From a virus (lineage: Duplodnaviria > Caudoviricetes): a stretch of DNA of 59,733 bases. Shown piece after piece: positions 5,316 to 25,367 of the stretch; position 1 is the first letter of the stretch; every line of letters starts with the position of its first letter. The position numbers and the translations under genes are program-made. The notes below the pieces were generated by a model, which had not been told where the DNA came from, ran no database searches, and saw nothing but the letters and a program-made list of their open reading frames with translations. The stretch lies in IMG/VR virus record IMGVR_UViG_3300043444_000048, positions 1 through 59,733 of that record. One strand, 5' to 3'.

Positions 5316-5324
5316 GGGGTATAA

Positions 5325-6104: not shown

Positions 6105-6113
6105 GGGGACTAA

Positions 6114-8534: not shown

Positions 8535-9042
8535 GAAAGTCTTTAATAATTAGCTTGGCACTATTTTTCGTAGACCAAGCACTCCAATTTTTCCCACCAT
8601 TAGACATCTGATAAGCAATCTTTGCATTTATTAGAGGATCAAACAAGTCTTTTTCAGAACCTAGACCGTACTTTTCCACCCTGTTATCTCCTAGTGAGCC
8701 AGACATGTTTATTTGAAATAGCCCGTAGCAGTCGCTAGACTTGTTGTATGCCATAGGACGCTTAGTGGATTCCTTAACTGCAATTGCCCAGGCATACTTC
8801 AATGAACTTCCAGAAAAGCCAGCTTCACGAAGAATAGATATTAATTCTTTATCTGATAGCATATGTTTTGGATCATATATAGCCTCTACAATCTTATACT
8901 CTCCACGCTCGAAATTAATCTCTTGTGAGGAGTAGGGCACTGTTAGCTTTTGCATTTCAGTATTAGCTGGCTGCCCCACTATGCTAGAAGCAGTTAGTGA
9001 GACAACCATGCTAATTGAACCAAATAAAATGTTAGTGTTCAT
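8527..9042 (-). CDS. Exported lysozyme-like / lytic transglycosylase protein
   Basis: Signal-peptide-like N-terminus; AIAVKES (catalytic Glu), YGLFQIN, LFDPLINAKIA and WSAWST motifs. Confidence 0.85.
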   Translation of the reverse strand: MNTNILFGSISMVVSLTASSIVGQPANTEMQKLTVPYSSQEINFERGEYKIVEAIYDPKHMLSDKELISILREAGFSGSSLKYAWAIAVKESTKRPMAYNKSSDCYGLFQINMSGSLGDNRVEKYGLGSEKDLFDPLINAKIAYQMSNGGKNWSAWSTKNSAKLIIKDFPN

Positions 9043-9629
9043 TAATTTTTTATTACCCTTACAAAAGAAATTTCACTTTGTGCAAACCAGCTATCAGTTA
9101 GCTTAATAATTTCAGTCTTGGTTCCTGGCTTTCTTGCGTGTACAACTTTGCCATTTCCAATATAAATGCCAACATGATAATACTTTTCAGAATTAAGGTG
9201 CTTAAAAGCCACAATGTCTCCAGGTTTTGGGGTAGAGACATGGGTTCCTGCATATCTAGCCTGTTTGCTAGCAGAATGTTCTAGCTCAACGCCAAGTCCT
9301 TCATAGAACCATCTAGTAAGCCCAGAGCAGTCCCATCCAGACGGAGAAGATCCACTGAAAATATATGGAACACGGTTAACGTATTTCTTTAGCTGCTTGA
9401 TTCTTTTTTCAAGAGCAACGGCGTTTTTTTGTTTGGCAACGCTCTCAGCCATTTTAGCGATGTTTAGCTCACGCTCTTGCTTTACTGCTATCGAGTAGTT
9501 TATTACACTTTGCTGTTTTATATTTGTATTAACGCTTTGGGCGTTATGTCGAATATCTCCAACAGCGATTGATGCAGAACAGCTAACAACTAGCAGCCCT
9601 GCGATTCCTAGTATTGCAATCTTCTTCAA
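9042..9629 (-). CDS. Exported NlpC/P60 peptidoglycan peptidase
   Basis: PYIFSGSSPSGWDCSGL, HVGIYIG and HA catalytic motifs. Start reassigned to the TTG at 9629 (SD AGGAGG), giving a signal peptide MKKIAILGIAGLLVVSC. Confidence 0.9.
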   Translation of the reverse strand: MKKIAILGIAGLLVVSCSASIAVGDIRHNAQSVNTNIKQQSVINYSIAVKQERELNIAKMAESVAKQKNAVALEKRIKQLKKYVNRVPYIFSGSSPSGWDCSGLTRWFYEGLGVELEHSASKQARYAGTHVSTPKPGDIVAFKHLNSEKYYHVGIYIGNGKVVHARKPGTKTEIIKLTDSWFAQSEISFVRVIKN

Positions 9630-9742
9630 GTTGCACCTCCTAAAGCAAAAAGCACCTTTTTTAAGGGTGCCGTTCGGTTGTCTAAATAGTTTAGCACGAT
9701 TTTGGTTAAAAATCAACTGAAATCCTATGTTATAATTAAACA

Positions 9743-10153
9743 ATGGCAACGCTAAGAGGTTCAGCCTCATCTTACGACATTGGGAATGTACCCCCAAGAA
9801 TTAATTGGACTATTGTTCGAGGTGACACAGCCTCATTCAGGGTATATGTAACTGACGACAATAAAGAGGCACTAAATATTCCAGACTGGAATATCTCTAT
9901 GCAGATTAAAAGACCAAACCTAGCAGCTAACCTTGGTAAGATAACCGATGACGCTACGCTAGTTCTTGACCTTACTCCGTCTGCAGACAGCGATGATCTA
10001 GCAGGAGAGTTTACGGTTTCTCTTACAGCTGCACAGTCAGCGATACTTCAAACTGGAGATATTTTTGATATTGAGCTATCCCTTCCACAGGATGAATTAG
10101 TTTGGACTGTTGCCCAGGGCAGTGTAATTATTATTGAGGACGTTACTGCATAA
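9743..10153 (+). CDS. Minor virion protein, BppU-N-like (paralog)
   Basis: WTIVRGDTASFRV, homologous to 2674-3060; leaderless promoter TGTTATAAT 6 nt upstream. Confidence 0.65.
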   Translation: MATLRGSASSYDIGNVPPRINWTIVRGDTASFRVYVTDDNKEALNIPDWNISMQIKRPNLAANLGKITDDATLVLDLTPSADSDDLAGEFTVSLTAAQSAILQTGDIFDIELSLPQDELVWTVAQGSVIIIEDVTA

Positions 10154-10380
10154 TGGCTTCAGTAAAAATTATTGAAGATAAAAAACACAGAGCAAAATCT
10201 CTTAAAGCCATAGATTATGCAATTATAAATGTTGCTAAGCGAGGATGGGCATCAGTCATTGTCGAAGAAGATATCCCGTTTAGAGTAAAATTTACAAATA
10301 TCACAATCCCTGGGTATGGACCAAACAACATTCCTGGTATCGGCATCCAGGTTATTGGATACAGCAACTACATTCTTTAA
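10153..10380 (+). CDS. Hypothetical protein
   Basis: TAATG-coupled ORF within the structural block. Confidence 0.6.
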   Translation: MASVKIIEDKKHRAKSLKAIDYAIINVAKRGWASVIVEEDIPFRVKFTNITIPGYGPNNIPGIGIQVIGYSNYIL

Positions 10381-10408
10381 TGTTTAAAAATCCTGGTATA
10401 CTTGTTAC

Positions 10409-10855
10409 ATGGCCAGAGTATCTATTCCTTATGTAAAGTCACGCTACGAAACAGGTGACAGACCGTCCCAAGAGGACTACGAAGATCTAATTGATACCGT
10501 TGCTGCTCAATCTACCGACCTTGGTACATTTGGTAACAACGAGAATACAGTTAGCGACATCCAAAACCCAACTGTACTGGATAGCTTTGATGCTACCGTA
10601 TGGAGAATGGTTAAGTATATTGTCTCACTATCTAAGACTTCTCAGGGAGACAACTACTTCTACGCCACAGAATTGACCGTACTTGTTGATGGAGAAAATG
10701 TTTCTGTATCAGAGTTCGGAACAATAGACAACGATGGGAATATGGGCACCATAGCTGTCTCTCGGACTGGAAATACTGTAGCACTTACAGTTACCCCAGA
10801 TTCAGTCATTAAGCCAGTTACCGCACGTTTTGCACGTATGGGACTTAAGGCATAA
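10409..10855 (+). CDS. Virion structural protein
   Basis: YETGDRPSQEDYEDLIDT N-terminal motif; C-terminal beta domain resembles the C-terminus of 10876-12600. Confidence 0.65.
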   Translation: MARVSIPYVKSRYETGDRPSQEDYEDLIDTVAAQSTDLGTFGNNENTVSDIQNPTVLDSFDATVWRMVKYIVSLSKTSQGDNYFYATELTVLVDGENVSVSEFGTIDNDGNMGTIAVSRTGNTVALTVTPDSVIKPVTARFARMGLKA

Positions 10856-10875
10856 ATTAAACAGGAGATAACAAA

Positions 10876-12600
10876 ATGGCAACAGTCGTAAAAGACTTTA
10901 AGATTAAAAGCGGTCTGATTGTTGAGGGCACCAGCGGTACCATCAACGGTTATGACATTCTTACAAAGAAAACAGCAGACCAGAACTACATTATTGGTCT
11001 GATTGGTGGAGCTGCAACTTCAGAAGCAACTCCAGATACAGTAGTTCTTCGTGATGAAAACGGAGACTTTTCTGCAAACGTAGTTACTGCCGACCTTGTT
11101 GGTGACGTAACTGGTAACGCAGATACAGCTACTGCACTTGAGACATCTCGCACAATTGAGCTAACTGGTGACGTAACAGGTTCTGTATCGTTCGACGGTA
11201 CTGCAAATGTTCAGATTTCTACAACCCTAGACGGATCATTTGCAACAGACGCAGAGGTTGCTACAGCTAAGGGCGAAGCAATTACTGCTGCTGGAGACTA
11301 CACAGATCAGGAAATCTCTGACCTAGATGCTTCTCTTAAGCTATATGCAGACCAGGCAGAGGCAGACGCAATTTCTGCTGCTGCTCTAGACGCAACAACC
11401 AAGGCAGACCAGGCTGAAGCTGATGCTATCGCTGCAGCTGCACTAGATGCAACCACAAAGGCAAACGCTGCTGAAGCTGCTGCAAAGCTTTACGCAGATG
11501 GTCTTGCTGTCAACTATGACGAAGCTGGTGCAGCTGATGCTGCATTGGTAGACGCTAAGGCATACACTGATGCTGAGGTAGCTGCTCTTGTTGATGGTGC
11601 TCCAGCACTTCTTGACACCCTTAACGAGCTTGCTGCAGCTATTGCTGACAACCCAAACTACGCAACTGACGTTGCCAACCTGGTTGCTAGCAAGGCAGAC
11701 ACAACCTACGTTGACGATGAGATTGCTGCTGCAATCCAGGCTACAACATACACTGCAGGCACAAACATTGACATCACTGGCAATGTAGTATCTGTAACTG
11801 GCCTAGACTCAGCAGACATTTCTGACTTCAACACAGCTGCAGTATCTGCAAACACTGGACTATGGGACACCATTGGTGCAGCTTCGACTGCAGAGACAAA
11901 CGCTAAGTCATACGCTGACGGTCTTGCTGTTAACTATGATGCAGCTGGATCTGCTTCTGCTGCTCAGACGGCTGCCGAGACATTTGCTACCAACGCAATC
12001 AATGCACTAGACACAGATGACATTGAGGAAGGTTCTAGCAACCTATACTACACAACTGGTCGTGCAAAGACTGACGCTGCTGCTCTGCTTGTAGGTGCAA
12101 CCCTTACCAACATCCAGATTACTGGAGATGGAAACGGCCTTACCATTACAGCAGAAAATGGTGTTGCTGACTCAGACACAGACGATCTAGCTGAAGGTAC
12201 ATCTAACTTGTACTTTACTGACCAGAGAGCTGTTGATGCATTGCAAAACACTGACTCTGTATTCAACACAGTAAGCATTGACGAGGTTGCACTTCAGGTA
12301 GCAGCTACACTCTCTGCTCCAACTGCTGGTATTCAGTCAGCTTACACATGGAACACCGCAGATTACACCTCTGCAGAATTCCTTGTAAAGGTTGCATACG
12401 GAACTCACACCGAGGTATCTAAGGTTCTTCTTACCCTAGACACATCAAGCAACATTGCAATCACTGAGTACGCAATTGTTGGCACCAACGGTTCAGCATC
12501 TACCATCTCTGCTAGCGTAGCTGATGGTGTTGTGAGCCTAGACGTAACAACAAACAACAACAACTCTACAGTTACCGTAGTCGGTACACTGCTAGTTTAA
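10876..12600 (+). CDS. Long fibre protein (Ala/Asp-rich coiled coil plus fibre repeats)
   Basis: RTIELTGDVTGSVSFDG, LVDGAPALLDTLNELAAAI and two DTDDxxEGxSNLY(Y/F)T repeats; SD AGGAG. Confidence 0.8.
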   Translation: MATVVKDFKIKSGLIVEGTSGTINGYDILTKKTADQNYIIGLIGGAATSEATPDTVVLRDENGDFSANVVTADLVGDVTGNADTATALETSRTIELTGDVTGSVSFDGTANVQISTTLDGSFATDAEVATAKGEAITAAGDYTDQEISDLDASLKLYADQAEADAISAAALDATTKADQAEADAIAAAALDATTKANAAEAAAKLYADGLAVNYDEAGAADAALVDAKAYTDAEVAALVDGAPALLDTLNELAAAIADNPNYATDVANLVASKADTTYVDDEIAAAIQATTYTAGTNIDITGNVVSVTGLDSADISDFNTAAVSANTGLWDTIGAASTAETNAKSYADGLAVNYDAAGSASAAQTAAETFATNAINALDTDDIEEGSSNLYYTTGRAKTDAAALLVGATLTNIQITGDGNGLTITAENGVADSDTDDLAEGTSNLYFTDQRAVDALQNTDSVFNTVSIDEVALQVAATLSAPTAGIQSAYTWNTADYTSAEFLVKVAYGTHTEVSKVLLTLDTSSNIAITEYAIVGTNGSASTISASVADGVVSLDVTTNNNNSTVTVVGTLLV

Positions 12601-12623
12601 TTAAATAGGAGGATGGGGCAGAA

Positions 12624-12962
12624 GTGACTGCTGAAAACAAAGACTTTAAGGTAAAGCACGGCCTACAGGTTGCTGAGGCAGCTTATGTAGGTGGAAACCT
12701 AGCGGTTTCTGAAGTCTCTGACAGCAGTCACGCTGCTTCTCTAGGTTATCTAAACCTACTTACCGTTGAGGTATCTGCAACTGCCCCATCTTCTATTTTC
12801 TCTGGCAAGCTATGGCTTGATACCACAGAGTCAAGATTAAAGTTTTATCATAACAATGCATGGGTAACCATAGCATCAAAGGCTGACACAGAGCAGGTCG
12901 TAGATCACATTCACGACTATGCTATTGACGGCACAGGCAGAATAATTGAGGTATTGGATTAA
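12624..12962 (+). CDS. Short fibre/adaptor protein (paralog A)
   Basis: KDFKVKHGL N-terminus, GKLWLDT and DHIHD..IDG.GRI shared with the next gene. Confidence 0.7.
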   Translation: MTAENKDFKVKHGLQVAEAAYVGGNLAVSEVSDSSHAASLGYLNLLTVEVSATAPSSIFSGKLWLDTTESRLKFYHNNAWVTIASKADTEQVVDHIHDYAIDGTGRIIEVLD

Positions 12963-13408
12963 TGACAACTATTAGTAAAGATTTTAAGGTTCGTAATGGA
13001 ATTTACGTTACTGGAGATGCTGTTATTGGCGGTACCGCAACAGTTGCTAACCCTACTCTTGCAGCCCACGCAGCAACAAAGAGTTATGTAGATACCGTTG
13101 CTATCCCTGCAATTGGTTCAACAGTTCCAGCAAACCCAATATCTGGACAGCTGTGGCTAGACACTAATGAGTCACGACTAAAAGTTTACTCTGGAACAGA
13201 GTGGATTGCTCTTGCAAATATGAACGATGCAATGCAGCTTCCTGACCACATTCACGATACTTCCATCGACGGAGATGGTAGAATTGTTACAATCTTTACC
13301 GATGGTGGAACACCATTCGGTGCAGCAGTCGCAGATGGTGGAGACCCAACTATCACTATCTGGGAAGGTACATGGACTGGTGGACTAGCCACCGACAACT
13401 TTAACTAA
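12962..13408 (+). CDS. Short fibre/adaptor protein (paralog B) with DGG motifs
   Basis: KDFKVRNG, HAATKSYVD, GQLWLDT, DHIHD and DGGxP repeats. Confidence 0.7.
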   Translation: MTTISKDFKVRNGIYVTGDAVIGGTATVANPTLAAHAATKSYVDTVAIPAIGSTVPANPISGQLWLDTNESRLKVYSGTEWIALANMNDAMQLPDHIHDTSIDGDGRIVTIFTDGGTPFGAAVADGGDPTITIWEGTWTGGLATDNFN

Positions 13409-13457
13409 AAGCATTTATAATTAATGTATTAGTTACACACAACAGGAGAAGTGTTTA

Positions 13458-16154
13458 ATGGCAACTAGAATGCAGCAAAGAAGAGGAACAGCCTCTCAAT
13501 GGACTACTGCTAACCCTATTCTGGCAGCTGGTGAAATTGGTTTTGAATCAGATACTGGCCAGTTTAAGATTGGTGATGGTACCAACTACTGGGCTGACCT
13601 ATCTTACTTCAAGAACATTGACGACCTTGGTGGAAACCTAGACGACTACGTTCCAATTAGCTTGCTCGCTCAGCCAGAAGGTGTTGCCACACTAGATGTA
13701 AATGGTCAGGTACCATCAGATCAGCTTGGAAACGCTGTTACAAGCCTTTCTGGCTACGCTACCGAAACATATGTCAATGATGCAATTGCTGGCGTTGTAG
13801 ACGGTGCTCCTGCCCTCCTAGACACGCTTAACGAAATTGCCACGGCTATTGCTGATGATGAGAACTATGCGGTATCAACAGTAAACTACATTAACCAGCA
13901 AGTAGACGATCTTGAGGTTGCTATTGGTAACGCAATCACTACAGCAGAAACCACAACAAATACCGCAATTGACACATTTGAGCAGAACGTTATTGTTCCT
14001 ATCCAGTCAGATGTAACTACACTACAGTCTAACGTACTAAATCTTGATGGGTCTAAGCAAGACAAGATTGATGGAGTTTCCGACGTTGAGATTGGCTACC
14101 TTGCCAACGTAACATCAGATATCCAAACACAGATTAACGCAAAGGCAGATGGTTCTCACACCCACACTGTAGGAGAAATAACTGGAATCACCGTTTCTGC
14201 TGAAGAAATTAACTCTTTGGTAGGTATCACAGATGATGTCCAAGTTCTTTTGGATGGAAAGGCTGGAGTAATCCACACCCATAGCCTATCTGATATTACA
14301 GATGTAACCGCTACCGTAGCCGAAGTAAACGTTTTGGATGGAATTACAGCCACCACAGCTGAGCTCAACATTCTAACTGGAGCTACTGTAACTGCTCTAG
14401 AGCTAGACACCTTGTCTGGTGCAACATCAAATATTCAAAACCAGCTAGATGATAAAGCTGCTGCAACTCACGTCCACTCTTTGGTAGACGTTACAGACGT
14501 TACTGCAACCACTACAGAAGTAAATTATCTATCTGGAGTGACTTCAGGTCTTCAGTCTCAGCTAGACGACAAGGCAGCAGCTTCACACTCGCATGCAGTA
14601 TCAGACCTTACTGGCGTAACTGTAGATGCTACAGCTATTAACTCGCTATCTGGAGTCCAGGGTAATGTTCAAAGCCAGCTAGATGGAAAGGCTGATGACC
14701 CTCATACACACTTCCTGCAGAATATTACAGATGTGTCTGCAACAGCGTCGGAGGTTAACTACTTGTCTGGAGTAACTTCTGGAATTCAAGGACAGCTAGA
14801 TGCTATTTCTGGAGACGTTTCAGACATCTCTGACGCACTTGTAACGAAGCAAGATAAGGTTGCTGGAATTACCGATACTGAAATTGGCTATCTAGATGGA
14901 GTAACATCTCTCATTCAGCAACAGCTAGATGGCAAGTCTGCAATTGGACACACTCACGGCATTTCAGATGTTTCTGGAGTAACTGCCACTACAACAGAAA
15001 TTAATCACCTTGTTGGTGTATCTAGTGCTATCCAAGACCAACTAGATGATAAGGCTGCAGCAACACACACTCACCCACAATCAGACATTACGGATCTAGT
15101 AGCTGACCTCGCATCTAAGGCAGATTTGGCAGGTGCAACATTCAGCGGTAGCGTAGAAGTTCCAAGCATGACAGTAACTGGTAACCTAGTTGTTCAAGGA
15201 ACCACTACTACAGTAGACACCACAAACTACTCTATTCGTGACAACATGCTATACATGAACCAAGCAGGAGTATTTGCAATTTCTGACGCTATTGGCAATG
15301 GAGCTACAGTTACGTATACTGCACAAGATCATGACTTCCAGGCTGGAGACTATATTGTTGTTACTGGTGTAAATCCATCTGGTTACAATATTGCTGGAAC
15401 AGACTTGCTGACAATAGACTCAGTTACCAATAATACCTTTACTGTAACAAAGTCAGATACTGGAACATATGTTTCTGGAGGTAGTGCCAGAGGAAAGTCT
15501 GCAGCTAACCCAGACCTAGGGTTTGCAGCTGGTAGAACAACCGCAGAGGGGTATGCTCACGCTGGACTGTTCCGTGATGCCTCAGATGCAACATTTAAGT
15601 TTTTTGATGGCTACACACCAGAGCCAGACGAGTCTCTATATATTGATACTGCCCACGCTAGCTTTGCCTTGGCACCAATCGAAGTTGCAGCAGTAACTAC
15701 TGGCGACCTAGACGTATCTGGAGCTGTGTCTGGTATATCTACATCTGATCTGGATGATGTAACGCTGTCTTTTGCATCAGATAAGGATGTTCTTGTCCAT
15801 GACGGTTCTGGCTGGGTAAACAAGTATGTTAACGCAATCCCAACAAAGATTAGTCAAGGATCTGTGGTTAGCAATAACTATGAGCTGGTAGCAGCTGATG
15901 CTGGAAAGATTGTTGAGATCTCAAATGCTAACGCAACTACAGTAACCATTCCAAGTGATGAAACATTCGCAGTAGGATCTATGATTGTTGTGTCTCAGAC
16001 AGGTGCTGGGCAAGTAACAGTTGTAGTCGAAGATTCTGGAATACAGACACTAAACTCTACCCCTGGCAGCAAACTGAGAGCACAATGGTCAGTTGCAACA
16101 TTGCTGAAGCGTTCAGCTAACACATGGCTAGTATACGGAGATTTGGTGGCTTAA
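13458..16154 (+). CDS. Tail fibre with Mtd-N-like N-terminal domain and His-containing fibre repeats
   Basis: QQRRGTASQW...NPILAAGEIGFESDTGQFKIGDG; about seven HxH...D(V/I)T...E(V/I)NYL.GV...Q.QLD.K repeats; conserved C-terminal domain. Confidence 0.85.
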   Translation: MATRMQQRRGTASQWTTANPILAAGEIGFESDTGQFKIGDGTNYWADLSYFKNIDDLGGNLDDYVPISLLAQPEGVATLDVNGQVPSDQLGNAVTSLSGYATETYVNDAIAGVVDGAPALLDTLNEIATAIADDENYAVSTVNYINQQVDDLEVAIGNAITTAETTTNTAIDTFEQNVIVPIQSDVTTLQSNVLNLDGSKQDKIDGVSDVEIGYLANVTSDIQTQINAKADGSHTHTVGEITGITVSAEEINSLVGITDDVQVLLDGKAGVIHTHSLSDITDVTATVAEVNVLDGITATTAELNILTGATVTALELDTLSGATSNIQNQLDDKAAATHVHSLVDVTDVTATTTEVNYLSGVTSGLQSQLDDKAAASHSHAVSDLTGVTVDATAINSLSGVQGNVQSQLDGKADDPHTHFLQNITDVSATASEVNYLSGVTSGIQGQLDAISGDVSDISDALVTKQDKVAGITDTEIGYLDGVTSLIQQQLDGKSAIGHTHGISDVSGVTATTTEINHLVGVSSAIQDQLDDKAAATHTHPQSDITDLVADLASKADLAGATFSGSVEVPSMTVTGNLVVQGTTTTVDTTNYSIRDNMLYMNQAGVFAISDAIGNGATVTYTAQDHDFQAGDYIVVTGVNPSGYNIAGTDLLTIDSVTNNTFTVTKSDTGTYVSGGSARGKSAANPDLGFAAGRTTAEGYAHAGLFRDASDATFKFFDGYTPEPDESLYIDTAHASFALAPIEVAAVTTGDLDVSGAVSGISTSDLDDVTLSFASDKDVLVHDGSGWVNKYVNAIPTKISQGSVVSNNYELVAADAGKIVEISNANATTVTIPSDETFAVGSMIVVSQTGAGQVTVVVEDSGIQTLNSTPGSKLRAQWSVATLLKRSANTWLVYGDLVA

Positions 16155-16156
16155 TT

Positions 16157-17764
16157 ATGAGAATATTTGGATTTGGTGGTAAGTTCCTGGGTGGCAAGTT
16201 TGAAGATGATTTTAATCGTCCAAATACTACCACTGGATTGGGTGTCTCAAGCAGCGGTACAGCTTGGGAAACTGTTAGTGGAACTATTAACGTAGAAAAC
16301 GGTAAAGCTGTATCCACTCCACCATCAACTCCATCTACAGGAAGCTCATACCCTATGTCAGTTATTGAGGCACAGGATGAGAATGCTATAATTACGCTAT
16401 CTGACACTAATGAAGGATCCTCTGTTGCTCTTTGGGTTCAGTCAAGCCAAGACTGGTGGATGGTATCAGTAGACTCTACCTTTAACACCATTCCAGGTGC
16501 AGTTAACTATACATCTGGAACACCTCTAGTGTATACCTCTAGCGGACCAACGTATACAAAGGGTGCTACCACCTATACCGATGCCTTGGGAACATATACA
16601 TCAAACACTCCATATACTCAGGGTACAACAACTTATACATCTGGAACAACTGGATATACAGCTGGATCAACACTATACTCTGTTGGTGGCACCTCATATA
16701 CTTCTGGACCAGCAAACTATACTGCGTCAACAGTTTATAGCTCATACACGCCATACACTGCATCTACGGCCTATACAACTGCTGGCGGTGGGGTTTACTC
16801 ATTTGCGAACTACTCGTTTGATGATACATACTACACTCAGGGACCAACCCTTTATGGTGCAGCAACAAACTACACGATGAACCAGCCATATACTTCTAGC
16901 AGAAGCTACACATCTTCTAGAAGCTATACTTCAGGTAGCTCATTTACAAAGTCTACGGCATACACCATGAAGTTTGCACCATATGCCTGGACAGCTGGTC
17001 CATCTACCTATACAAAGTCTACCAACTATACTGCATCAGCAATTTCCTATACGGCATCCGCTGCAAACTATACTGGCGGAACTGCAAACTTTACATCTAC
17101 TACAAATTATATTAATTTTGGAACAGCATATTCTAGTCAAAATGTTTATATTTTATGGCAAAGCGGTACCTACACAGAGCCTACAACCTACACTCAAGGA
17201 CCAACCAACTACTATGCTGGTAGCTCATACGTAATTTCAGGACCAACAACGTATACGCAGAATGGACCGTTTTACACCTCTAACACTCCGTACACCACCG
17301 TAGTGCCTTACACTTCAAACACCCCATATACATCAAACACACCTTATAGCAGTGTTAATAACTATACAAGTAGCGTGGTGTATACAAGTGCTGACAACTA
17401 TACTGCAAATATTGCATACACCTCTAACCACACATATACTAAGGGTCAGGATCCAGATACATATGCCTATGCAGCATATCTTAAGATTAAAAAGTCTGTC
17501 AATAATGTTGTTACGACGGTTAGCTCTTCACTTGTATCAACCGTGTCTACCATCAAGTCTATAATTGTTCAAACATCTGGCAATCAAATTACTGCAAAAG
17601 GCTTTTCTGACGACAATTTTGTTGCCCAAATAGGAAATGATTTGGTTTATACTGCAACTGGTGCTATTGTAGTAGCAAAATATGGAATTTCTCTATCTAA
17701 TGCAGAATACGATCAAAGTGCTATAATAGGTACTGAAATTGTTATAGATAAAAACAATGCATAG
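16157..17764 (+). CDS. Putative fibre-tip adhesin, beta-sandwich domain interrupted by Tyr-Thr repeats
   Basis: Start reassigned to ATG 16157, just after the upstream stop. FEDDFNRPN lectin-like N-terminal half, ~320 aa repeat insert, globular C-terminal half. Confidence 0.7.
   Translation: MRIFGFGGKFLGGKFEDDFNRPNTTTGLGVSSSGTAWETVSGTINVENGKAVSTPPSTPSTGSSYPMSVIEAQDENAIITLSDTNEGSSVALWVQSSQDWWMVSVDSTFNTIPGAVNYTSGTPLVYTSSGPTYTKGATTYTDALGTYTSNTPYTQGTTTYTSGTTGYTAGSTLYSVGGTSYTSGPANYTASTVYSSYTPYTASTAYTTAGGGVYSFANYSFDDTYYTQGPTLYGAATNYTMNQPYTSSRSYTSSRSYTSGSSFTKSTAYTMKFAPYAWTAGPSTYTKSTNYTASAISYTASAANYTGGTANFTSTTNYINFGTAYSSQNVYILWQSGTYTEPTTYTQGPTNYYAGSSYVISGPTTYTQNGPFYTSNTPYTTVVPYTSNTPYTSNTPYSSVNNYTSSVVYTSADNYTANIAYTSNHTYTKGQDPDTYAYAAYLKIKKSVNNVVTTVSSSLVSTVSTIKSIIVQTSGNQITAKGFSDDNFVAQIGNDLVYTATGAIVVAKYGISLSNAEYDQSAIIGTEIVIDKNNA
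16508..17460 (+). repeat. 48 degenerate Y-T-x(4-5) peptide repeats
   Basis: Units such as YTSGPAN, YTSNTP, YTSSRS; 24 units on each side of a central MKFAPYA. Confidence 0.85.
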
Positions 17765-17778
17765 CAGATAGGATTAAT

Positions 17779-18468
17779 GTGAAAATAATTAGATTTTTTT
17801 CAAAAAAAATTTATGATGGTCTAGGCCAGCCGACAACGGCAAAAAAGCATCTTCCTCAATGGTATAAAGACTCAGAATCGACCTTTATAACTGATGAAGG
17901 CTCTGACCACCCTGGGCTGAAGAAGTGTATTCCATTTCTGGACTCTATGCTTTCTGGATATATGCTAGTTACTCCAGTAGATGTTTTTATATCTCATAAC
18001 GAAGACGGAACTCCAAATATTAGGTGGAACTCATCAGAATTTTTTATAGATTTTATTTCAGAGCGAACAAAGCTTCTAGGCGAAAAAATGCCAAGACCAG
18101 CAGGACATTTTCCAAATCACTTAGCATTTAGGGGTACTTGGGGATTTCGATTGCCAAGAGGTTGGAGTGTGCTAGTAACCCAGCCATTTAATAGACATGA
18201 TTTGCCATGGACGTTGACTTCTGGAATAATGGACGCTGATCAGTTTTCTACTAGCGGTAATCTTCCATTTTTCCTTAGAAAAGACTTCGTCGGCATGATT
18301 CCAGCAGGAACCCCTATTGCACAGCTAATCCCAATAAAACGTGCATCGTGGAAGGCAATCTATAATGATCAAGGAATTGCGTATCTGGATGATTTGCAGA
18401 CTGCAGCGGTAAGAAGTCCTGGGAAAAGTTATAAGAAACTGTTCTGGCAAAGAAAGGACTATACATAG
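17779..18468 (+). CDS. Conserved phage protein of unknown function, 'KKCxPFLD' type (paralog 1)
   Basis: PQWYK...KKCIPFLDSMLSGY...QPFNR.DLP...SGIMDAD...IPAGTPIAQLIP; clearly paralogous to 18895-19545. Confidence 0.75.
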   Translation: MKIIRFFSKKIYDGLGQPTTAKKHLPQWYKDSESTFITDEGSDHPGLKKCIPFLDSMLSGYMLVTPVDVFISHNEDGTPNIRWNSSEFFIDFISERTKLLGEKMPRPAGHFPNHLAFRGTWGFRLPRGWSVLVTQPFNRHDLPWTLTSGIMDADQFSTSGNLPFFLRKDFVGMIPAGTPIAQLIPIKRASWKAIYNDQGIAYLDDLQTAAVRSPGKSYKKLFWQRKDYT

Positions 18469-18908
18469 TGCTATTTAAAAAAAAGAAGAATCAAGAGGTC
18501 TATGGAGATTTCTTGTACGAGTACAGACCAACAGTATCTTCGTTGCTGAAGCAATATCTAGAAACTAAGATCGCAAAAGAGAGGCTCGTAAAAGAGTCGC
18601 CTAAGCGAGAGGGTGCTGTTTTTAGACCACATGAAGATATCCTGAAGTCCTTACCACTAAAGTATATTGCTGTTGTTAAAGATAACACTGTAGTTGAAAT
18701 GATTCGTGTTAATGAACAGACCGCAGATATCTTGCTTGATCCATTAGTTAGTCTCGTTGGTTTTAATCCAGAAGAGGTTGTCGTCCAGATAGGCATGATC
18801 TGTGTAGATGGAAACTTTGTTTTCCGTGCAGATATTCCAGAAGAGAACTCAGATTTTATTAACTCAGACACTACATTTGACGAGGAGATTTCTGATGAAA
18901 AAGATTAA
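18468..18908 (+). CDS. Hypothetical protein, possible fibre assembly factor
   Basis: YIAVVKDNTVVEMI...VQIGMICVDGNFV resembles small proteins found next to fibre genes; overlaps both neighbours. Confidence 0.55.
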   Translation: MLFKKKKNQEVYGDFLYEYRPTVSSLLKQYLETKIAKERLVKESPKREGAVFRPHEDILKSLPLKYIAVVKDNTVVEMIRVNEQTADILLDPLVSLVGFNPEEVVVQIGMICVDGNFVFRADIPEENSDFINSDTTFDEEISDEKD

Positions 18909-19545
18909 GTTTAGATCAAAGCACCCAGAAATTGATTACGATACTCCAAAACCAGCATCAAAGATTGTCCCAGAGTGGTTTAGAAAGTTTGAAGGGGTAG
19001 TTGGTGGTCAAGAAACCATCAAGAAGTGCGTACCATTCTTAGATGCAATGACTGCTGGATACGTAATAACTTTAGCGTCAGACATATATGTTGACAAAAA
19101 CGGTATTCAGGACCTATCTAAACACAAGGTGGTCACTAATCACTTGATTGAGCAGATTGGTGAGATGAAGGTGCCATATGAGTTTATAAGAACGCCATTT
19201 AAGTGGATGAACTTTTTTTTGGCTAAGACCCCAAGAGGCTACAGTACAATGTTTGTGCATCCGCTAAATAGACCAGACTTGCCATTCTATACTCTGAGTG
19301 GTGTTGTAGATACCGATAAGTTTCCATTAGAAGTTAACTTCCCATTCTTTTTGAGAAAAGATTTTGTTGGAATTATTCCTGCAGGAACACCAATTGCTCA
19401 GGCAATTCCATTCAAGAGAGAAGACTGGTCTATGGAGCTTGACACAACGACTCCGTATCAGGAGCCAACCTTCACCCACACTATGCATAATCCTCCATTT
19501 GGATACTACAAGAGACACTTCTGGTCTAGAAAAAGATACTCATAA
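18895..19545 (+). CDS. Conserved phage protein of unknown function, 'KKCxPFLD' type (paralog 2)
   Basis: Start reassigned to ATG 18895 (SD GAGGAG; aligns with paralog 1). KKCVPFLDAMTAGY, HPLNRPDLPF, SGVVDTD, IPAGTPIAQAIP. Confidence 0.8.
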   Translation: MKKIKFRSKHPEIDYDTPKPASKIVPEWFRKFEGVVGGQETIKKCVPFLDAMTAGYVITLASDIYVDKNGIQDLSKHKVVTNHLIEQIGEMKVPYEFIRTPFKWMNFFLAKTPRGYSTMFVHPLNRPDLPFYTLSGVVDTDKFPLEVNFPFFLRKDFVGIIPAGTPIAQAIPFKREDWSMELDTTTPYQEPTFTHTMHNPPFGYYKRHFWSRKRYS

Positions 19546-19568
19546 TCAAAGTGTGATAAACTAGTTAC

Positions 19569-20528
19569 ATGTCTGTCGAAAGAATCCAACTTAGAAGAGG
19601 TACTACTTCTGCATGGTCAGCAGCAAACCCCATTCTATACTTGGGCGAGTTTGGCGTAGAGAAAACAGTTTCAGACCAGGTCTTGCTAAAAATTGGTGAT
19701 GGAGAAACCTCTTGGAATTCTCTTCCATATATTACTGCAGAAATTGACCTATCTGCCTACTACACTTCATCACAGACAGATCAAAAAATTGCATCAGACA
19801 TTGGTGCAGCGTCTGCAGTAATCTTGGGTCAGCTTGCTGGAAAGTCTGACGTATCCCACAACCACGCTTTATCTAGTCTAACTGATGTAGAGGTAGACGG
19901 AGTAACTCTTGGACAATATCTTAAGTTTGATGGAACAGAGTGGGTTCCTGGCACCGTTTCTACGCCAACCACTTTTGACTACAATGATCTCGTCAATGTG
20001 CCAACATCTTTTGAGCCATCAGAGCACACTCATGCAATTTCTGAGGTAGTAAATTTACAGACTACCCTAGATGGAAAAGCTAGCTCATCACATACGCACC
20101 AGATTTCAGATACAACTGGTCTACAGTCTGCCCTAGACTCAAAAGCGTTATCGTCACACACTCATACACTTTCAAATATATCTGATATTGCAAATTTAAC
20201 AGTTAGCTCGTCTCAGGTGACTACATCAATTTCGGATGTTTCCTCAAATTATTCAACTCAGGCCTCAGATAATGGCAAGCTAATCAACTCTACTGCAAGC
20301 TCTGCTGTAACAATTACCATAAGCAACAGCATGTCTGCAGGACAAAGCCTTGCAATTTTTCAGTCTGGAGCAGGCATTGTAACCATTGCCCCTGGCTCTG
20401 GCGTAACCTTGCAGGGTGCTGGAGTATCTGGAACATCTCTAGCGATTAATGATAGGTATTCTAGTGCCACAGTCTTCTGTTTATCATCTGGCACTTACGC
20501 TGTAATTGGCAATGTTTCTGGGGTATAG
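19569..20528 (+). CDS. Second, shorter Mtd-N-type fibre
   Basis: IQLRRGT..AW...NPIL..GEFG...KIGDG, HTH repeats, and the same C-terminal domain as 13458-16154. Confidence 0.8.
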   Translation: MSVERIQLRRGTTSAWSAANPILYLGEFGVEKTVSDQVLLKIGDGETSWNSLPYITAEIDLSAYYTSSQTDQKIASDIGAASAVILGQLAGKSDVSHNHALSSLTDVEVDGVTLGQYLKFDGTEWVPGTVSTPTTFDYNDLVNVPTSFEPSEHTHAISEVVNLQTTLDGKASSSHTHQISDTTGLQSALDSKALSSHTHTLSNISDIANLTVSSSQVTTSISDVSSNYSTQASDNGKLINSTASSAVTITISNSMSAGQSLAIFQSGAGIVTIAPGSGVTLQGAGVSGTSLAINDRYSSATVFCLSSGTYAVIGNVSGV

Positions 20529-20530
20529 CT

Positions 20531-21799
20531 ATGATAAACGGAATGCTATTTTCTGGAGCATCATCCTCTATAGCTAAAAGGAATGGCTGGATTATTAAGT
20601 ATTCTGGCGGATCTGTTTTTGATGGCACCTTGGTGCAAATACCCTCAGATTCAGAGCATGCGTACCTGATAACAAGAAATATAGAGATCAGAAAAATCAA
20701 GCTGTCTACTGGTATTGTTGTAGACAATTACCAATACTCACCGACACTTTCATCTCTTCATGAAGCTGTTGCAGATTCTTCGTCAAACATGTATATAACT
20801 GGAAGCTCTGGCAACTCTGTTTATGTATTAAAAATAAACTCAAGCATGCAGCTAGTCTGGCAAAAAACCATATCCAATAACAACATATCATTTGGAGAGG
20901 GTGCAATTAGGGTAGATTCTAGCGGTAACGTTTATGTAACAAACTACGAAAAGACCACGGGTTCCCTTATGACTATTCTTTCTAAGTTTGATTCAAACGG
21001 AAATCCTTTATGGCATAGACAGCTTGGCAACGGGTCTTCTGACGTATCTATCCAGCCATTAGCATTAGACAGCTCAAGTAACGTGTATGTGGCTGGATAC
21101 TTTGTTTCTGGGTCAAGTGCTGCTGCTGCTGTTATGAAGTTTGATACTAATGGCAACCACCAATGGACTACTTCTCTAGACAATTCTTCAGTTTGGGATG
21201 CATTCTTGAATGAGGTGCAGGTTGATTCTTCTGGAAACGTTTACGCCCTAGGATTCTCTGACAATGGTGGAAGGCGTTCTTTTATTGTTAAGCTGAACTC
21301 TTCTGGCTCTGTGCAATGGCAAAAAACTATTGGTGCAGGTGTAGGAGAGTGGATTGGTCCAGGGTCAATGGTTATGGATGGCACTACGCTGTACTTTAAT
21401 ATGTTTGGCCCAGTGGTAGAAAGCAATAATGTTATTAGCATTGTGGCACTTAATCTATCTGGAGTAAAGCAGTTTGAAAGACAGTTTAGATATTATGGTC
21501 AAAACCTTTATAGCCAAAAAATTTCTATAATTGGTAATCATATTTATGTTCCAGGGTATAGTCCATTTGGTTTTGCATTTAAGGTTCCCAAGGATGGCTC
21601 TAAAACTGGAACGTATAATTCATTTGGTAACGTTGTAACTTATACAAACTCTGCAACCCAACTTGTAGAGCAGAACACTACATATTCAGTATCCTCTGGA
21701 GGTATAAGCGTATCTTCAACGTCAAGAACAGTTGCTACCGCATCTGGGTCAGTAGTTCAGCAACCTGGCCTAACCAGTGCTATTGTGAGAAGATTCTAG
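20531..21799 (+). CDS. Beta-propeller repeat protein, putative fibre-tip adhesin
   Basis: Repeated DSSGNVYV.G...K(F/L)(D/N)..G...W blades (SBBP-like). Confidence 0.8.
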   Translation: MINGMLFSGASSSIAKRNGWIIKYSGGSVFDGTLVQIPSDSEHAYLITRNIEIRKIKLSTGIVVDNYQYSPTLSSLHEAVADSSSNMYITGSSGNSVYVLKINSSMQLVWQKTISNNNISFGEGAIRVDSSGNVYVTNYEKTTGSLMTILSKFDSNGNPLWHRQLGNGSSDVSIQPLALDSSSNVYVAGYFVSGSSAAAAVMKFDTNGNHQWTTSLDNSSVWDAFLNEVQVDSSGNVYALGFSDNGGRRSFIVKLNSSGSVQWQKTIGAGVGEWIGPGSMVMDGTTLYFNMFGPVVESNNVISIVALNLSGVKQFERQFRYYGQNLYSQKISIIGNHIYVPGYSPFGFAFKVPKDGSKTGTYNSFGNVVTYTNSATQLVEQNTTYSVSSGGISVSSTSRTVATASGSVVQQPGLTSAIVRRF

Positions 21800-21824
21800 A
21801 CTTCGTATATGGTAAAATACTTGT

Positions 21825-24800
21825 ATGTCAATCCTATCTAACTTGTATGCCGAAAGAGTTTTTTCAGAACAGCCAACCGCTCTTTGGGCACTAGATGATG
21901 ACGCAGACTTCATATCTCTGATTCCACCAGAGCTACGCTCAATGGATGGTTGGCACCTAACCAACGCATCAAAGTCACAGTCTTCAGATCTAATTAAGCA
22001 AATAAAGAAATCTCCTTTAATTAAATTTGAAACTACAAACTCTTTAGGCTTTACAGCAAAAAGTCCTGCAGTATTTAATGCACAGGATTTAGTGGAAGAA
22101 AAGGGGTCGTTTAGCATAGGCACCTATTTTTATTCCAATACAGATGAAATATCTGAGGTAAAAATTGGGTATGAGTATGCTAACGGAACACCAGGTGAAG
22201 TTACTACCTATGCTGTTACTACAAGTGGAGCCTGGGTGTTTTTATCAAACACTTATGCACTACCATCTCCAGAAGTAGATATAAAATTAACGCTTGAAGT
22301 AGTTACATCAACTGCTGGCTCTTACTCTTTTTATGTTAACGGATTTTCTGTAGGCCAGTGGTCGGAAAAATTTCACACGGTTTCTGATGGAATTGACTTA
22401 ATTGATTTACCAGAAAATATAAACATTGAAAATACAAAATGCTATCCTGCTTATGCTTACGGGTTTTCTGATAAAACTGGATACTATCTAGCTACAGGCA
22501 ATAATCTTTCAGCCTATAACGACGGCTTTCCGATGGTGTTTGGTGCATCAGGTGTTACTAGGATTGTTGGTAACCAAGGCAAGCCATCTTTGATTATTCC
22601 AGGAGGAGGCTTCCTTCATGATTTGGGTAGGTATCAGGACCTCACCCTGGAGTTTTGGCTAAGAGTCCTTAATATGTCTGTATCTCCTCAAAAAATTGTT
22701 GGACCCGTATTCTCTGAAGACGGTCTGTATGTAGATGGTCAGTTTTTAGTTCTTAAAATAGATAGGAATGTTCAGTCTTATTTTGTTGGTGAGTGGGAGA
22801 GACCAATGCTAATAGATTTTAGAGTATCTCCCAACACGTCAAGCGTAATGATCAATGGTGAAATTGTAATTAGCATGGATATTGATACAAAAGCTGTTCC
22901 AATGCCAGATGCTGTAGATAATGACTGGATAGGCTTTTACGGATTTACTGACAAGGTCTCTTTAGATATTGACTGTGTAGCATTATATTCATACCAGGTT
23001 CCATCAGTTGTTGCAAAAAGAAGATTTGTTTATGGTCAGGGTGTTGATGTTCCAGAAACTATAAATGGGTCGCTTGTCGGATCTGGTGTTACTATAGACT
23101 ACCCAGTTGCAGGGTATGCAAATAACTATATTTACCCAGACATGGGAAGATGGAGTCAAGGCATTTTCGACAATTTATCAACGGACGGCAGCTCCTTGTC
23201 TAGTCCAAAGTATGATTTGCCACTCTTTGTTTTTAAGAATAAGGATATCTCTTTAGACCAGTGGCTAGACCTATGCTATGACCAAGAAGGAAGTGAGGAC
23301 TTCTCATCGATAGACATGTCGCTAGCCGATACTGCTGATAAGTCTGGTGGGTATATTCTATTTGATAAGTTCAATATCTCTGGACAAGACACAAAAGCAG
23401 CCTATGGTATTTTTAAAACAAAAGATACTTCAGATAGACTGCTCTTTAAGCTGTTTAATAAAACTAACCAGGCAAGCCTTACTCTTTCAATAATTGATAG
23501 CAAGGCTGTTTACAGGTTTGAGTACCCAAACATGGAATCTTTAGAGGTTGAGTCTTCTCAATCAATTCCGATAAACTCTATATTCTTGGCAGGCTTTGAT
23601 GTAGACAAGATGGTTGCACATTTTGGTGGCATTGTGTCCAGGGTATTCTCTGACCCAAAGAAACTATCTCTATATGTAGCAGGAGACGAATCATTCTTAA
23701 ATACCTTTAACGGTAAGATATATAAGGTTGGGTTAGCTATTAAGTCTAATCTGCCAGAGATTGCAGACTGGTCATCTGAAGATGGAATTATGCTGGTTCT
23801 TGGAGAGAATGTTCCATTACTAGATGGTGGAGAGCCACCAACAAACTATACAGTTCTGGCAAATGCAGGAGAGCCCGACTCTGACCTGCTATCTACAAGA
23901 AGCGGTGGGCTTCCCACCCTGGGCACAACTCTTGAGTTGATTAATTATATTGCAGGGTACACACTAACTCCAAGACTATATTTGGGCAAGTTCATCATAG
24001 ATGTTGCATCCAAGGGTTACTGGCAAGACTTTGTTTCTTTGTCGCACTTTGGAAAAAATATGCCTAACCTAGAAGGCGATGCAATTCCAACTCTCAGTTA
24101 CTTGCAGTTTAACATAGATGTACCTAGGATGGATATCTTAGATCCCCTAGAGCCATGGCATCTGGATACCTCAAGCTTGCCAGTAAAGACATACGTTTCG
24201 TTCCAGTATTTGGCCTCTGGTGCAAATAAACTACTCAAAAATTTTACAGCGGTTCAACGAGCTTTAGCGAACTCCCCAGTAGTTCCAGGAGATGGTTGGA
24301 TGAATACTGCATACGAGGTTGTCTCTGGATCAGTTATCTATCTTCCATCTGGAGTAGATTATAGGAACCTTGCCCTTGTGTACCATATCAAGGTAGAAAC
24401 AAAGTCAGTATTTTCTAATGCTGTAAAAATTAAGCGTATGGAGACCTGCTCTCAGGCAATTAGCATTCACGAGCCACTAAAAATCAATACTAAGTTTGGT
24501 GTTCAAATATCTCCATATATTAAGAGAGGTCTGTACCAAGACTATCTGGGCAAAAATCCAGTATGCATTTATAAGAGAAGTACGCCATACATCCACCTGA
24601 CCAAGCAAAGTGGCATAAAGATGCTAGATTATTTTATTGAAGAGGGGGCTGAAAAGGGCATTTCTATACCAATAAATTCAAATCGTGTAGCCCAGTATGC
24701 AGTCGGAGCTATTCAGACATTTATCAACTATCAGGCTAGTGGCTTTCCAGAGCTTGAGGTAAAGATGATGGAGATCAAGGCCTATAATAGATCAACCTCT

Positions 24801-25367
24801 ATCATGCTTGTATCTGATGTCATTGATAATACCAGAGGAAAAATATTTGCAATAGACTCAAAAACAGGTCTTCCTGATCAGTTTGTTAATTTCTATCTTA
24901 ACGGAAAGTTGGTAAAGTCACCATACATTAATGCTAAGCAGTGGGATGTTTTGGCTATTCAGTTTATCGATGGAATGAAATTCGACAGCTTCTCTGGCTC
25001 TATAAATTTGTGTTCAGAGCAGATGCTATTCAACAATATTTCTACCTACAGGCTGTCAGAGATTCAGACATCTGTAACCTCTATTTTTAGAACCTGGGCA
25101 CAGCTTGAGCAGATGATAGATAAGCCAGGGAATGAGTCTACATACTGGGGAGACTTCTTGTCTGCAACACCACCGCTTTCTTGGGAGAATATCCTGTTTA
25201 TTCCTACGGTTCGACGTTATTTGATAGACCCAAAAGCTATTTTTGAGTCATATTCTGGTACAAACAGGATATCTGTATCTGATGATTCTGTATTAATGTT
25301 TAAAAATTATAGGTACACAGCATATTCAGATGTCAGATGGCGTTCAAACATTGCTTCACCAGTTTAG
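21825..25367 (+). CDS. Large minor virion protein with LamG/concanavalin-like domains
   Basis: PTALWALDD N-terminus and DLTLEFWLR LamG-like strand; leaderless promoter. Confidence 0.65.
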   Translation: MSILSNLYAERVFSEQPTALWALDDDADFISLIPPELRSMDGWHLTNASKSQSSDLIKQIKKSPLIKFETTNSLGFTAKSPAVFNAQDLVEEKGSFSIGTYFYSNTDEISEVKIGYEYANGTPGEVTTYAVTTSGAWVFLSNTYALPSPEVDIKLTLEVVTSTAGSYSFYVNGFSVGQWSEKFHTVSDGIDLIDLPENINIENTKCYPAYAYGFSDKTGYYLATGNNLSAYNDGFPMVFGASGVTRIVGNQGKPSLIIPGGGFLHDLGRYQDLTLEFWLRVLNMSVSPQKIVGPVFSEDGLYVDGQFLVLKIDRNVQSYFVGEWERPMLIDFRVSPNTSSVMINGEIVISMDIDTKAVPMPDAVDNDWIGFYGFTDKVSLDIDCVALYSYQVPSVVAKRRFVYGQGVDVPETINGSLVGSGVTIDYPVAGYANNYIYPDMGRWSQGIFDNLSTDGSSLSSPKYDLPLFVFKNKDISLDQWLDLCYDQEGSEDFSSIDMSLADTADKSGGYILFDKFNISGQDTKAAYGIFKTKDTSDRLLFKLFNKTNQASLTLSIIDSKAVYRFEYPNMESLEVESSQSIPINSIFLAGFDVDKMVAHFGGIVSRVFSDPKKLSLYVAGDESFLNTFNGKIYKVGLAIKSNLPEIADWSSEDGIMLVLGENVPLLDGGEPPTNYTVLANAGEPDSDLLSTRSGGLPTLGTTLELINYIAGYTLTPRLYLGKFIIDVASKGYWQDFVSLSHFGKNMPNLEGDAIPTLSYLQFNIDVPRMDILDPLEPWHLDTSSLPVKTYVSFQYLASGANKLLKNFTAVQRALANSPVVPGDGWMNTAYEVVSGSVIYLPSGVDYRNLALVYHIKVETKSVFSNAVKIKRMETCSQAISIHEPLKINTKFGVQISPYIKRGLYQDYLGKNPVCIYKRSTPYIHLTKQSGIKMLDYFIEEGAEKGISIPINSNRVAQYAVGAIQTFINYQASGFPELEVKMMEIKAYNRSTSIMLVSDVIDNTRGKIFAIDSKTGLPDQFVNFYLNGKLVKSPYINAKQWDVLAIQFIDGMKFDSFSGSINLCSEQMLFNNISTYRLSEIQTSVTSIFRTWAQLEQMIDKPGNESTYWGDFLSATPPLSWENILFIPTVRRYLIDPKAIFESYSGTNRISVSDDSVLMFKNYRYTAYSDVRWRSNIASPV

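Follow-up and report, generated by a model that had tools for sequence, protein, structure and literature searches.

A phage protein with a lectin-like domain split by a long two-armed aromatic-repeat insert, a candidate giant beta-hairpin stalk

In this work we describe P0001, a protein of 535 amino acids (aa) encoded in IMG/VR virus record IMGVR_UViG_3300043444_000048 (Duplodnaviria; Caudoviricetes), in which a lectin-like domain is interrupted by a long series of aromatic-anchored repeats. The window that we analysed is the whole record of 59,733 nucleotides (nt), for which CheckV estimates a completeness of 55%. Genes for a portal, a protease, a capsid protein and a replication module were recognised in it, together with several for fibre-like proteins and one for a tape measure of 3019 aa. 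Judging from this portal, capsid, tape measure and fibre gene set, the virus is an uncultured phage of the long-tailed siphophage type. The nearest matches of its capsid protein among cultured phages are only about 43% identical, and a megablast search of positions 13000-20000 of the window against 50,697 phage records, a set from which records close to the window may be missing, returned no match.

The P0001 open reading frame (ORF) occupies exactly 16157..17764 on the plus strand, is found once in the 59.7-kb record and begins with an ATG that lies 2 nt downstream of the stop codon of an 898-aa fibre-like gene. Its features are listed below. Confidence in the AlphaFold2 (AF2) models is given as the predicted local distance difference test (pLDDT) score, and the units are the aromatic-anchored repeats described in the next section.

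16157..17764 (+): whole P0001 gene, 535 aa plus stop, single copy
16157..16507 (+): aa 1-117, predicted N-terminal half of a concanavalin A (ConA)-like or carbohydrate-binding module (CBM)-type beta-sandwich; AF2 block pLDDT 78-96 for residues 11-110 and 67 for residues 111-120; VIA-align fold alignments extend over model residues 13..535
16508..16966 (+): aa 118-270, outbound arm, units 1-23 and the first two residues of unit 24, with 7-mers prevailing in the outer part and 6-mers in the inner part; AF2 gives it no confident structure, and antiparallel pairing is proposed from homologues
16967..16990 (+): aa 271-278, the pivot M-K-F-A-P-Y-A-W, predicted hairpin tip; a conserved basic-Pro-aromatic motif at the midpoint of the insert
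16991..17461 (+): aa 279-435, return arm, from the fourth residue of unit 25 to unit 48, with 7-mers prevailing in the inner part and 6-mers in the outer part
17462..17761 (+): aa 436-535, predicted C-terminal half of the beta-sandwich; AF2 block pLDDT 79-97 for residues 431-535; the most conserved part of the family

A split lectin-like domain and its unannotated family

With an alignment of 68 sequences, AF2 models residues ~10-115 and 430-535 of P0001 as confident all-beta structure. The model supports the view that the N- and C-terminal halves fold together as one ConA-like lectin or CBM sandwich: it is a two-sheet jelly-roll that superposes on known ConA-like members, and the model of a shorter homologue (P0077, 327 aa) has the same split sandwich and the same structural matches. 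Both models were compared with known structures by VIA-align. The rows obtained for P0001 include 9n6a_A, the receptor-binding domain of TM4 gp23 (tabulated values 14.4, 3.2 and 176; model range 13..535), 4b1m_A, a bacterial CBM66 (13.9, 3.1 and 149), 8zdo_a, a Douge baseplate chain (13.5, 3.3 and 169), and 5ly8_A, the evolved-Dit CBM2 of phage J-1 (12.1, 4.1 and 181), with many lectins and glycoside-hydrolase accessory domains further down the list. Identity over the residues aligned to these four structures is 8-12%, the aligned lengths are at most 182 residues, and the insert is covered by none of them. No PDB entry was matched at E<=0.001 when the P0001 model was searched with Foldseek. 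DSSP strings and the fold alignments suggest that the strands flanking the insert are adjacent in the sandwich. An initial annotation, made from the sequence of the window, had proposed a lectin-like head split by the insert, and the model agrees with it on both counts.

Relatives of P0001 comprise 94 matching proteins in a 90%-clustered collection and, at 50% identity, 156 representatives that match at E<=0.001. The members are all unnamed or 'hypothetical' and come from metagenomes and viromes, and BFVD has six entries of clear similarity (E 6e-13 to 4e-8), each an 'uncharacterized protein' from an uncultured phage. The source names of P0020, P0241 and P0244 ('histone arginine demethylase JMJD6', 'Roadblock/LC7/MglB' and 'queuine synthetase') look like mis-annotations, since these proteins align to P0001's own domains. 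Pfam yields no family for P0001 (E<=1) and no match for any of 68 aligned members, PHROGs no match for P0001, NCBIfam none for four family members, and a profile search of the PDB nothing at E<=1. Furthermore, no description of a lectin-like domain with a giant repeat hairpin was found in the open-access literature, in keeping with the remark in the initial annotation that the architecture is not recognised as a described fold. The family is undescribed, unannotated and widespread in uncultured aquatic phages.

Both halves of the sandwich are present in 139 of the 236 proteins that we collected, and the inserts of these full-length members range from 61 to 384 aa, with a median of 175. Insert-less or split forms were not found among the collected members. 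A search for shorter forms gave 10 proteins of 81-271 aa, all of them fragment-like and on contigs of at most 3.7 kb.

The chemistry of the insert varies across the family. T, S and Y together make up 43% of the residues, aromatic spacing peaks at 6 and 7 family-wide, and the repeats are Y/F/W-T/S hexads and heptads, N-Y-G-x-x-G-S heptads, or Cys-rich arrays. The N-Y-G-x-x-G-S heptads, a third chemistry, are seen in P0071, P0091 and P0101, with ~7 to 10 per arm (counted by eye) around a non-repetitive centre. A Cys-rich insert in place of a Tyr/Thr-rich one is found in 42 of the 139 full-length members (P0094, P0095, P0203, P0219 and others). Examples are arrays of G-C-T-x-Y pentads and C-N-P-Y repeats, in which the two-armed layout and the central basic cluster are kept, and these members suggest disulfide-laddered versions of the stalk.

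In P0001 itself T, S and Y number 98, 75 and 56 of the 535 residues (18%, 14% and 10%), and the insert consists of ~319 aa of aromatic-anchored units of 6 or 7 residues. Spacings of 6 or 7 from one aromatic residue to the next account for 37 of 57, against 7.0 +/- 2.5 (maximum 17) in 10,000 shuffles, a periodicity far above chance. We parsed residues 118-435 greedily, taking Y or F as the anchor and requiring the next anchor to be at least 5 residues on. This gives 48 units (25 of six residues, 15 of seven, five of eight, one of five and two of nine), of which 32 start with Y-T by manual count. The junction between M-K-F-A-P and Y-A-W coincides exactly with the boundary of units 24 and 25, and the two arms measure 158 and 160 residues. 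A simple parse therefore reproduces what had been noticed at first sight, namely about 320 aa of mostly Y-T repeats with 24 units on either side of a central MKFAPYA turn. At the DNA level Tandem Repeats Finder detects a single weak array (period 21, 2.3 copies), the repeats having diverged, and on that ground we rejected a recent origin by DNA slippage.

A further claim, that the unit lengths of the two arms are complementary, with 7-mers facing 6-mers and sums that are usually 13, did not survive. Opposed units sum to 12-14 in 20 of 24 pairs, which is near-automatic for units of 6-7 residues. A sum of exactly 13 occurs in 11 of the 24 pairs, where permuted pairings average 8.1 (P=0.11, not significant), and the lengths of opposed units show no anticorrelation (r=+0.16). 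We therefore discarded this pattern as evidence of pairing.

Arm symmetry, the basic tip and the case for a hairpin

The central turn of P0001 has counterparts throughout the family. We searched for a pivot motif of the form [RK]x2-3Px1-2[YFW] anywhere in the insert, with no positional constraint, and obtained 56 matches in 47 sequences, 48 of them at a relative insert position of 0.45-0.55. Shuffled inserts give 0.14 matches each, 10% of them central. Among the 41 sequences with a single match, the lengths of the two arms correlate with r=0.986 and a slope of 0.90, over 31 distinct pairs of arm lengths from (63,61) to (185,164). The unit counts of their two arms agree to within +/-1 in 36 sequences and are equal in 17, and the mean residue difference is 9.7. 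In seven of the 42 Cys-rich members, a different motif of the type N-S-[RK]-N-K-T-G-G-N-C takes this central place (relative position 0.48-0.52).

Changes in length are shared between the arms as well. In 20 non-overlapping pairs of nearest relatives, nine differ by at least 3 residues in at least one arm, and eight of these nine show changes of the same sign in the two arms (such as +6/+9, -4/-4, -44/-46 and -66/-80). Changes of opposite sign are seen in three cases, all with shifts of at most 2 residues. When P0084 is compared with its close relatives, two 12-aa insertions are found, one per arm. Symmetric gain and loss of repeats among homologues, which had been suggested as a check of the hairpin idea, is what the family displays, and the two-armed design with a basic tip is a family property and no accident of P0001.

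Charged residues are distributed unevenly along the insert. Of 714 K and R residues in family inserts, 507 lie in the central fifth, and D and E lie at the two ends; the stalk of P0001 is uncharged except for its basic distal end around K-F-A-P-Y-A-W. For an analysis of selection we used one close pair, P0001 and an IMG/VR relative that is 84% identical to it, with a single 1-aa indel between them and the pivot motif unchanged. Identity climbs from 55-60% beside the tip to 90-100% at the base, symmetrically in both arms. The proportion of synonymous differences (pS) is saturated at 0.62-0.75, and that of nonsynonymous differences (pN) is 0.08 in each sandwich half, 0.055 in the arm bases, 0.13 in the mid-arms and 0.25 within 40 residues of the tip. 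For either sandwich half the ratio of nonsynonymous to synonymous rates (dN/dS) comes to 0.06, and for the distal 40 residues to 0.22. P0001 is thus under purifying selection, and the low pN against saturated pS, together with the symmetric gradient of identity, indicates in this one pair that the stalk is a constrained, functional polypeptide whose distal flanks evolve fastest.

Model-based evidence of pairing comes from a homologue. For P0077, AF2 with a 28-sequence alignment returned a model with a mean pLDDT of 79.1 and a predicted template modelling (pTM) score of 0.61, in which strands 104-123, 126-157 and 161-170 lead up to a turn at 171-172 and strands 173-181, 185-217 and 221-242 lead back. 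The turn is at the P-G of R-P-A-P-G-S-F, which is the pivot motif, and the other strand breaks are mirror-symmetric about it. Stalk residues 121-220 have block pLDDT values of 58-76. We regard this predicted hairpin as moderate evidence for a hairpin stalk.

Covariation between the arms was analysed in two subfamilies. In a short class of 19 gap-free sequences, i+j=340 comes out first and 342 second among 90 anti-diagonals. They stand about 3 standard deviations (SD) above the mean, and both exceed all 104 parallel diagonals; the peaks reach 0.042 against 0.020 for the top parallel diagonal, and the band 340-343 is first of 87. Aromatic cross-pairs in the short homologue point to the same register: there are 10 and 9 of them at i+j=340 and 341, and the remaining 26 registers of the scan have 1-6. 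In a long class of 35 sequences, which are about 39% identical to P0001, six of the top seven of 111 hairpin-type diagonals fall at offsets of -11..-3. These offsets agree with the arm-length offset of ~7-9 in that class, and the maximum of the parallel-type control is less than half as high. A parallel beta-solenoid or hexapeptide-repeat fold was also considered and set aside: no Pfam repeat family was matched, the insert starts and ends in one sandwich, the arms are symmetric and parallel covariation is lower.

Several points weigh against a single long hairpin. In the AF2 model of P0001, residues 138-424 have pLDDT <50 and form only scattered strands of 3-5 residues, and the anti-diagonal that the initial annotation expected near MKFAPYAW was not obtained. 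The five P0077 models are variable, with mean pLDDT values of 79.1, 78.4, 71.0, 58.2 and 53.2, the last two being poor. The covariation was computed from just 19 and 35 related sequences, and its peaks stand ~2.6-3 SD above the mean of all diagonals. In P0001 the blocks of 7-mers that face blocks of 6-mers make the register between the arms drift by up to 6-8 residues before it returns, and among ungapped aromatic cross-strand registers the best has 9 pairs against ~5.4 expected, with none beyond chance. A flat ribbon with tyrosine opposite tyrosine would therefore need a bulge in many units. No isolated two-stranded ribbon of such length is known to be stable. Finally, a tblastn search of P0001 against the 50,697 phage records found no match.

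These points leave room for two quite different readings of the insert. In one of them the low-complexity Tyr/Thr/Ser insert would be intrinsically disordered, a spacer or sticky region whose arms have no defined structure and whose symmetry is incidental. The low AF2 confidence in P0001 and the biased composition of the family inserts are what such a spacer would show, but the arm-length correlation, the paired indels and the central motif hold across inserts of 61-384 aa, the pN of the arm bases is low against a saturated pS, covariation is antiparallel and a short homologue is modelled as long strands. We judge a disordered spacer to be very improbable.

In the other the arms do pair, in a much shorter fold: two face-to-face beta-meander sheets with one unit per rung, which would measure ~12 nm for P0001 (24 rungs at 4.8 Å), or, in the long versions, a ribbon that doubles back on itself. 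Against rungs of 3-4 residues stand the AF2 strands of P0077, which are continuous over 20-33 residues, and the covariation peaks, which lie on single anti-diagonals. The unit counts of the arms, by contrast, match at least as well as their residue counts, the 7-mers facing 6-mers in P0001 suggest the unit and not the residue as the pairing element, and AF2 fails on the long insert. Such a compact fold is improbable in our opinion.

Returning to the long hairpin, the antiparallel ribbon of the initial annotation is upheld at the level of the family by arm symmetry, the P0077 model and covariation in two subfamilies, and is not borne out by the AF2 model of P0001. As for the cross-strand tyrosine pairs that were supposed to hold the ribbon together, an ungapped register enriched in aromatic pairs is seen in the short homologue and none in P0001. 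The hairpin model and the covariation belong to homologues. For P0001 itself the hairpin is a prediction that draws on homology, a shared insertion point, the pivot motif and equal arms. The main topological claim holds, the details of tyrosine pairing and complementarity do not, and we consider the case for an unusual giant hairpin stalk to be moderately strong.

The fibre gene module

The P0001 gene lies within a cluster of tail-fibre-like genes. Its immediate neighbours are as follows.

13458..16154 (+): upstream fibre gene, 898 aa, with PTR repeats and Mtd_N; the last ~90 aa of its product are a conserved feature immediately before the family gene in 22 of 26 related loci
17779..18468 (+): first DUF6065-like gene, downstream module
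18468..18908 (+): orf146, a small ORF between the DUF6065-like genes
18808 or 18895..19545 (+): second DUF6065-like gene, downstream module

This order of fibre gene, family gene, DUF6065, orf146 and DUF6065 is a module conserved in related phage contigs. The last three genes directly follow the family gene in 24 of 26 related IMG/VR loci, and the other two loci end there. In the upstream fibre protein the PTR repeats are matched in five stretches, and there are seven regularly spaced H-x-H motifs, each of which precedes a similar segment of ~10 residues. These motifs presumably recall the metal-binding H-x-H sites of T4 fibre needles.

The two DUF6065-like genes are paralogues (phrog_7084), and the Pfam match to DUF6065 is sub-threshold (24.6 bits, with a cutoff of 26.6). 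For the second gene the start at 18895 is probably correct, since the ESM Atlas has that protein from residue 30 on. For the first, 49 records yield tblastn matches of 28-35% identity. Haloarchaeal tailed viruses or phages (HF2, HRTV, HCTV and others) account by name for 48 of these records, and the 25 matches listed are all annotated 'hypothetical protein'. By eye, the single His-Asp of the first copy is not kept in the second. We considered whether these neighbours are modifying enzymes, as the Joint Genome Institute (JGI) labels one family member JMJD6, and nothing supports this.

The wider surroundings deserve a brief description. Positions 3307..25367 (+/-) of the window hold an unusually large block of fibre- and adhesin-like genes. 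This block precedes the portal gene instead of following the tape measure gene, and among its members are collagen-like, He_PIG/fn3, beta-propeller-repeat and PTR/Mtd_N genes as well as an ORF of 1180 aa without a family. A glycosyltransferase-like gene (phrog_24687) at 844..1734 (+) is near the fibre cluster, and a link to fibre glycosylation is possible. The tape measure gene is at 34919..43978 (+). Tail length follows a rule of ~0.15 nm per tape-measure residue, and the 3019 aa of this protein imply an exceptionally long tail of ~450 nm.

The position of the gene gives weight to the idea that the hairpin serves as an arm in assembly and corresponds, at giant size, to the 'arm and hand' of siphophage Dit proteins. 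Its tip would grip the upstream fibre or another virion protein, or its arms would wrap it, and the sandwich would bind the host. The arm of Dit extends from a galectin-like domain, is short (tens of residues) and non-repetitive, and is part of a ring-forming protein. The arm of the P0001 family is instead 61-384 aa long and repetitive, P0001 has no detectable Dit N-terminal domain (it has no PHROG match, hence none to the Dit families), and its gene is in a fibre cluster upstream of the portal gene and not after the tape measure gene. What the two would share is a hairpin-like arm with a functional tip that leaves the lectin-type sandwich of a tail protein, as in the Dit proteins of phages p2 and 1358. 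A figure legend in PMC7291167 notes that the 'arm and hand' interacts with the base of receptor-binding proteins.

The spacing of 2 nt between the fibre stop and the P0001 start would suit an assembly arm, as would the conserved C-terminal domain of the fibre that directly precedes the gene in most loci and the conserved tip motif, which fits a constant partner. The six-fold range of stalk lengths would not, nor would the residues that flank the tip, which evolve fastest; this pattern is more in keeping with a host target that changes than with a virion partner that stays constant. We think that an assembly arm is unlikely.

A candidate host-probing adhesin

P0001 is probably a virion-associated adhesion or probe protein that combines a split CBM-type sandwich with a giant antiparallel two-arm stalk and a basic tip. 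The role of a virion adhesin or probe is suggested by the conserved fibre-gene module, by a basic tip that diverges faster than the base and by strong purifying selection. Likewise, a CBM-type head, a position right after a fibre gene, a stalk of variable length and a fast-evolving basic end together point to a protein that probes the host. We infer from this that P0001 is present in the virion and contacts a receptor, and the oligomeric states discussed below are deductions of the same kind.

In the proposed arrangement, aa 1-117 and 436-535 would form one ConA-like or CBM-type beta-sandwich, which the 319-aa insert would leave and re-enter at neighbouring strands. The insert would run out and back as two equal, antiparallel, beta-paired arms, each of 24 aromatic-anchored units of 6 or 7 residues. 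An extended strand measures 3.3 Å per residue, and the stalk could reach up to ~50 nm if fully extended. Its length would evolve by matched gain and loss of units in both arms, with the distal 40 residues of each arm diverging fastest. The tip may contact a component of the host surface, probably an anionic one, and the sandwich may bind a glycan or dock P0001 on the fibre encoded just upstream. The exposed Thr and Tyr rows may themselves bind glycan or be modified, as the initial annotation suggested.

More speculatively, the family may represent an unrecognised kind of fibrous protein, a possibility that we put forward as tentative. It would be a beta-hairpin 'ruler' set in a lectin-like domain, ~10 to 60 nm long when extended, with a length set by matched insertions and a basic tip that reaches an anionic receptor through host surface layers. 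The Cys-rich and N-Y-G-heptad versions would then be other chemistry in the same design.

The number of chains in the stalk is the subject of another reading. The out-and-back path would be the same, but three (or more) hairpins would bundle into a six-stranded antiparallel needle like the tip of T4 gp37, with the aromatic stripe as an inter-chain core. Phage fibres are usually trimers, and T4 gp37 is a trimer with metal-binding H-x-H motifs along its needle. The out-and-back path and the symmetry of the arms are what a needle of this type requires, and a regular aromatic stripe in a polar stalk would suggest a buried interface. P0001 resembles gp37 in its elongated antiparallel beta structure, predicted from family-level evidence, with a chain that extends as far as a distal receptor-binding end before turning back towards a proximal domain. 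It differs in having one His in 535 residues, hence no H-x-H metal sites, in its base, which is lectin-like and not a collar, and in its aromatic repeats of 6 or 7 residues; arms in the family reach 185 residues. The gp37 tip is made up of a collar, a six-stranded antiparallel needle and a head, according to PMC7291167.

The head of P0001 has its closest fold matches among CBM-type modules, not in the gp37 collar. One of these, BppU of phage Douge, is a protein of 311 aa whose C-terminal CBM (residues 116-311) binds mycobacterial glycans and is described as a dimer in a hexamer of dimers (PMC13033339), so that the head gives no reason to expect a trimer. We identify 8zdo_a with this protein on the basis of its length and aligned range. 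On this evidence we regard a needle of the gp37 type as somewhat unlikely.

Comparison with other known systems places the two-armed adhesin that we favour in context. The P0001 head folds like the siphophage CBM modules (Douge BppU, TM4 gp23 and the J-1 evolved-Dit CBM2) and the bacterial CBM66, at the low identity given above and outside any curated sequence family. Its long repeat insertion is not seen in their descriptions. Tentaclins are C-type-lectin phage proteins with a hypermutated surface beta-hairpin that is thought to bind receptors (PMC10743442), and they share with P0001 only the idea of a lectin that displays a hairpin. Their lectin is of the C type and not ConA-like, a diversity-generating retroelement varies their short hairpin, and Ig domains follow it; P0001 has none of these features.

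We see several uses for these results. Naming the family, which counts 156 clusters at 50% identity and is present at 26 IMG/VR loci, would help to annotate host-recognition modules better. Furthermore, paired indels form a signature that needs sequence data only and can reveal other inserts of the out-and-back type. Should the two-armed stalk prove real, it would be an unusually long fibre based on a beta-hairpin of polar and aromatic residues with almost no charge, which is relevant to protein design and to the stabilisation of ribbons. For the phages, it would provide simple and evolvable control over the reach of an adhesin, through the paired gain and loss of units while the base and the tip are kept.

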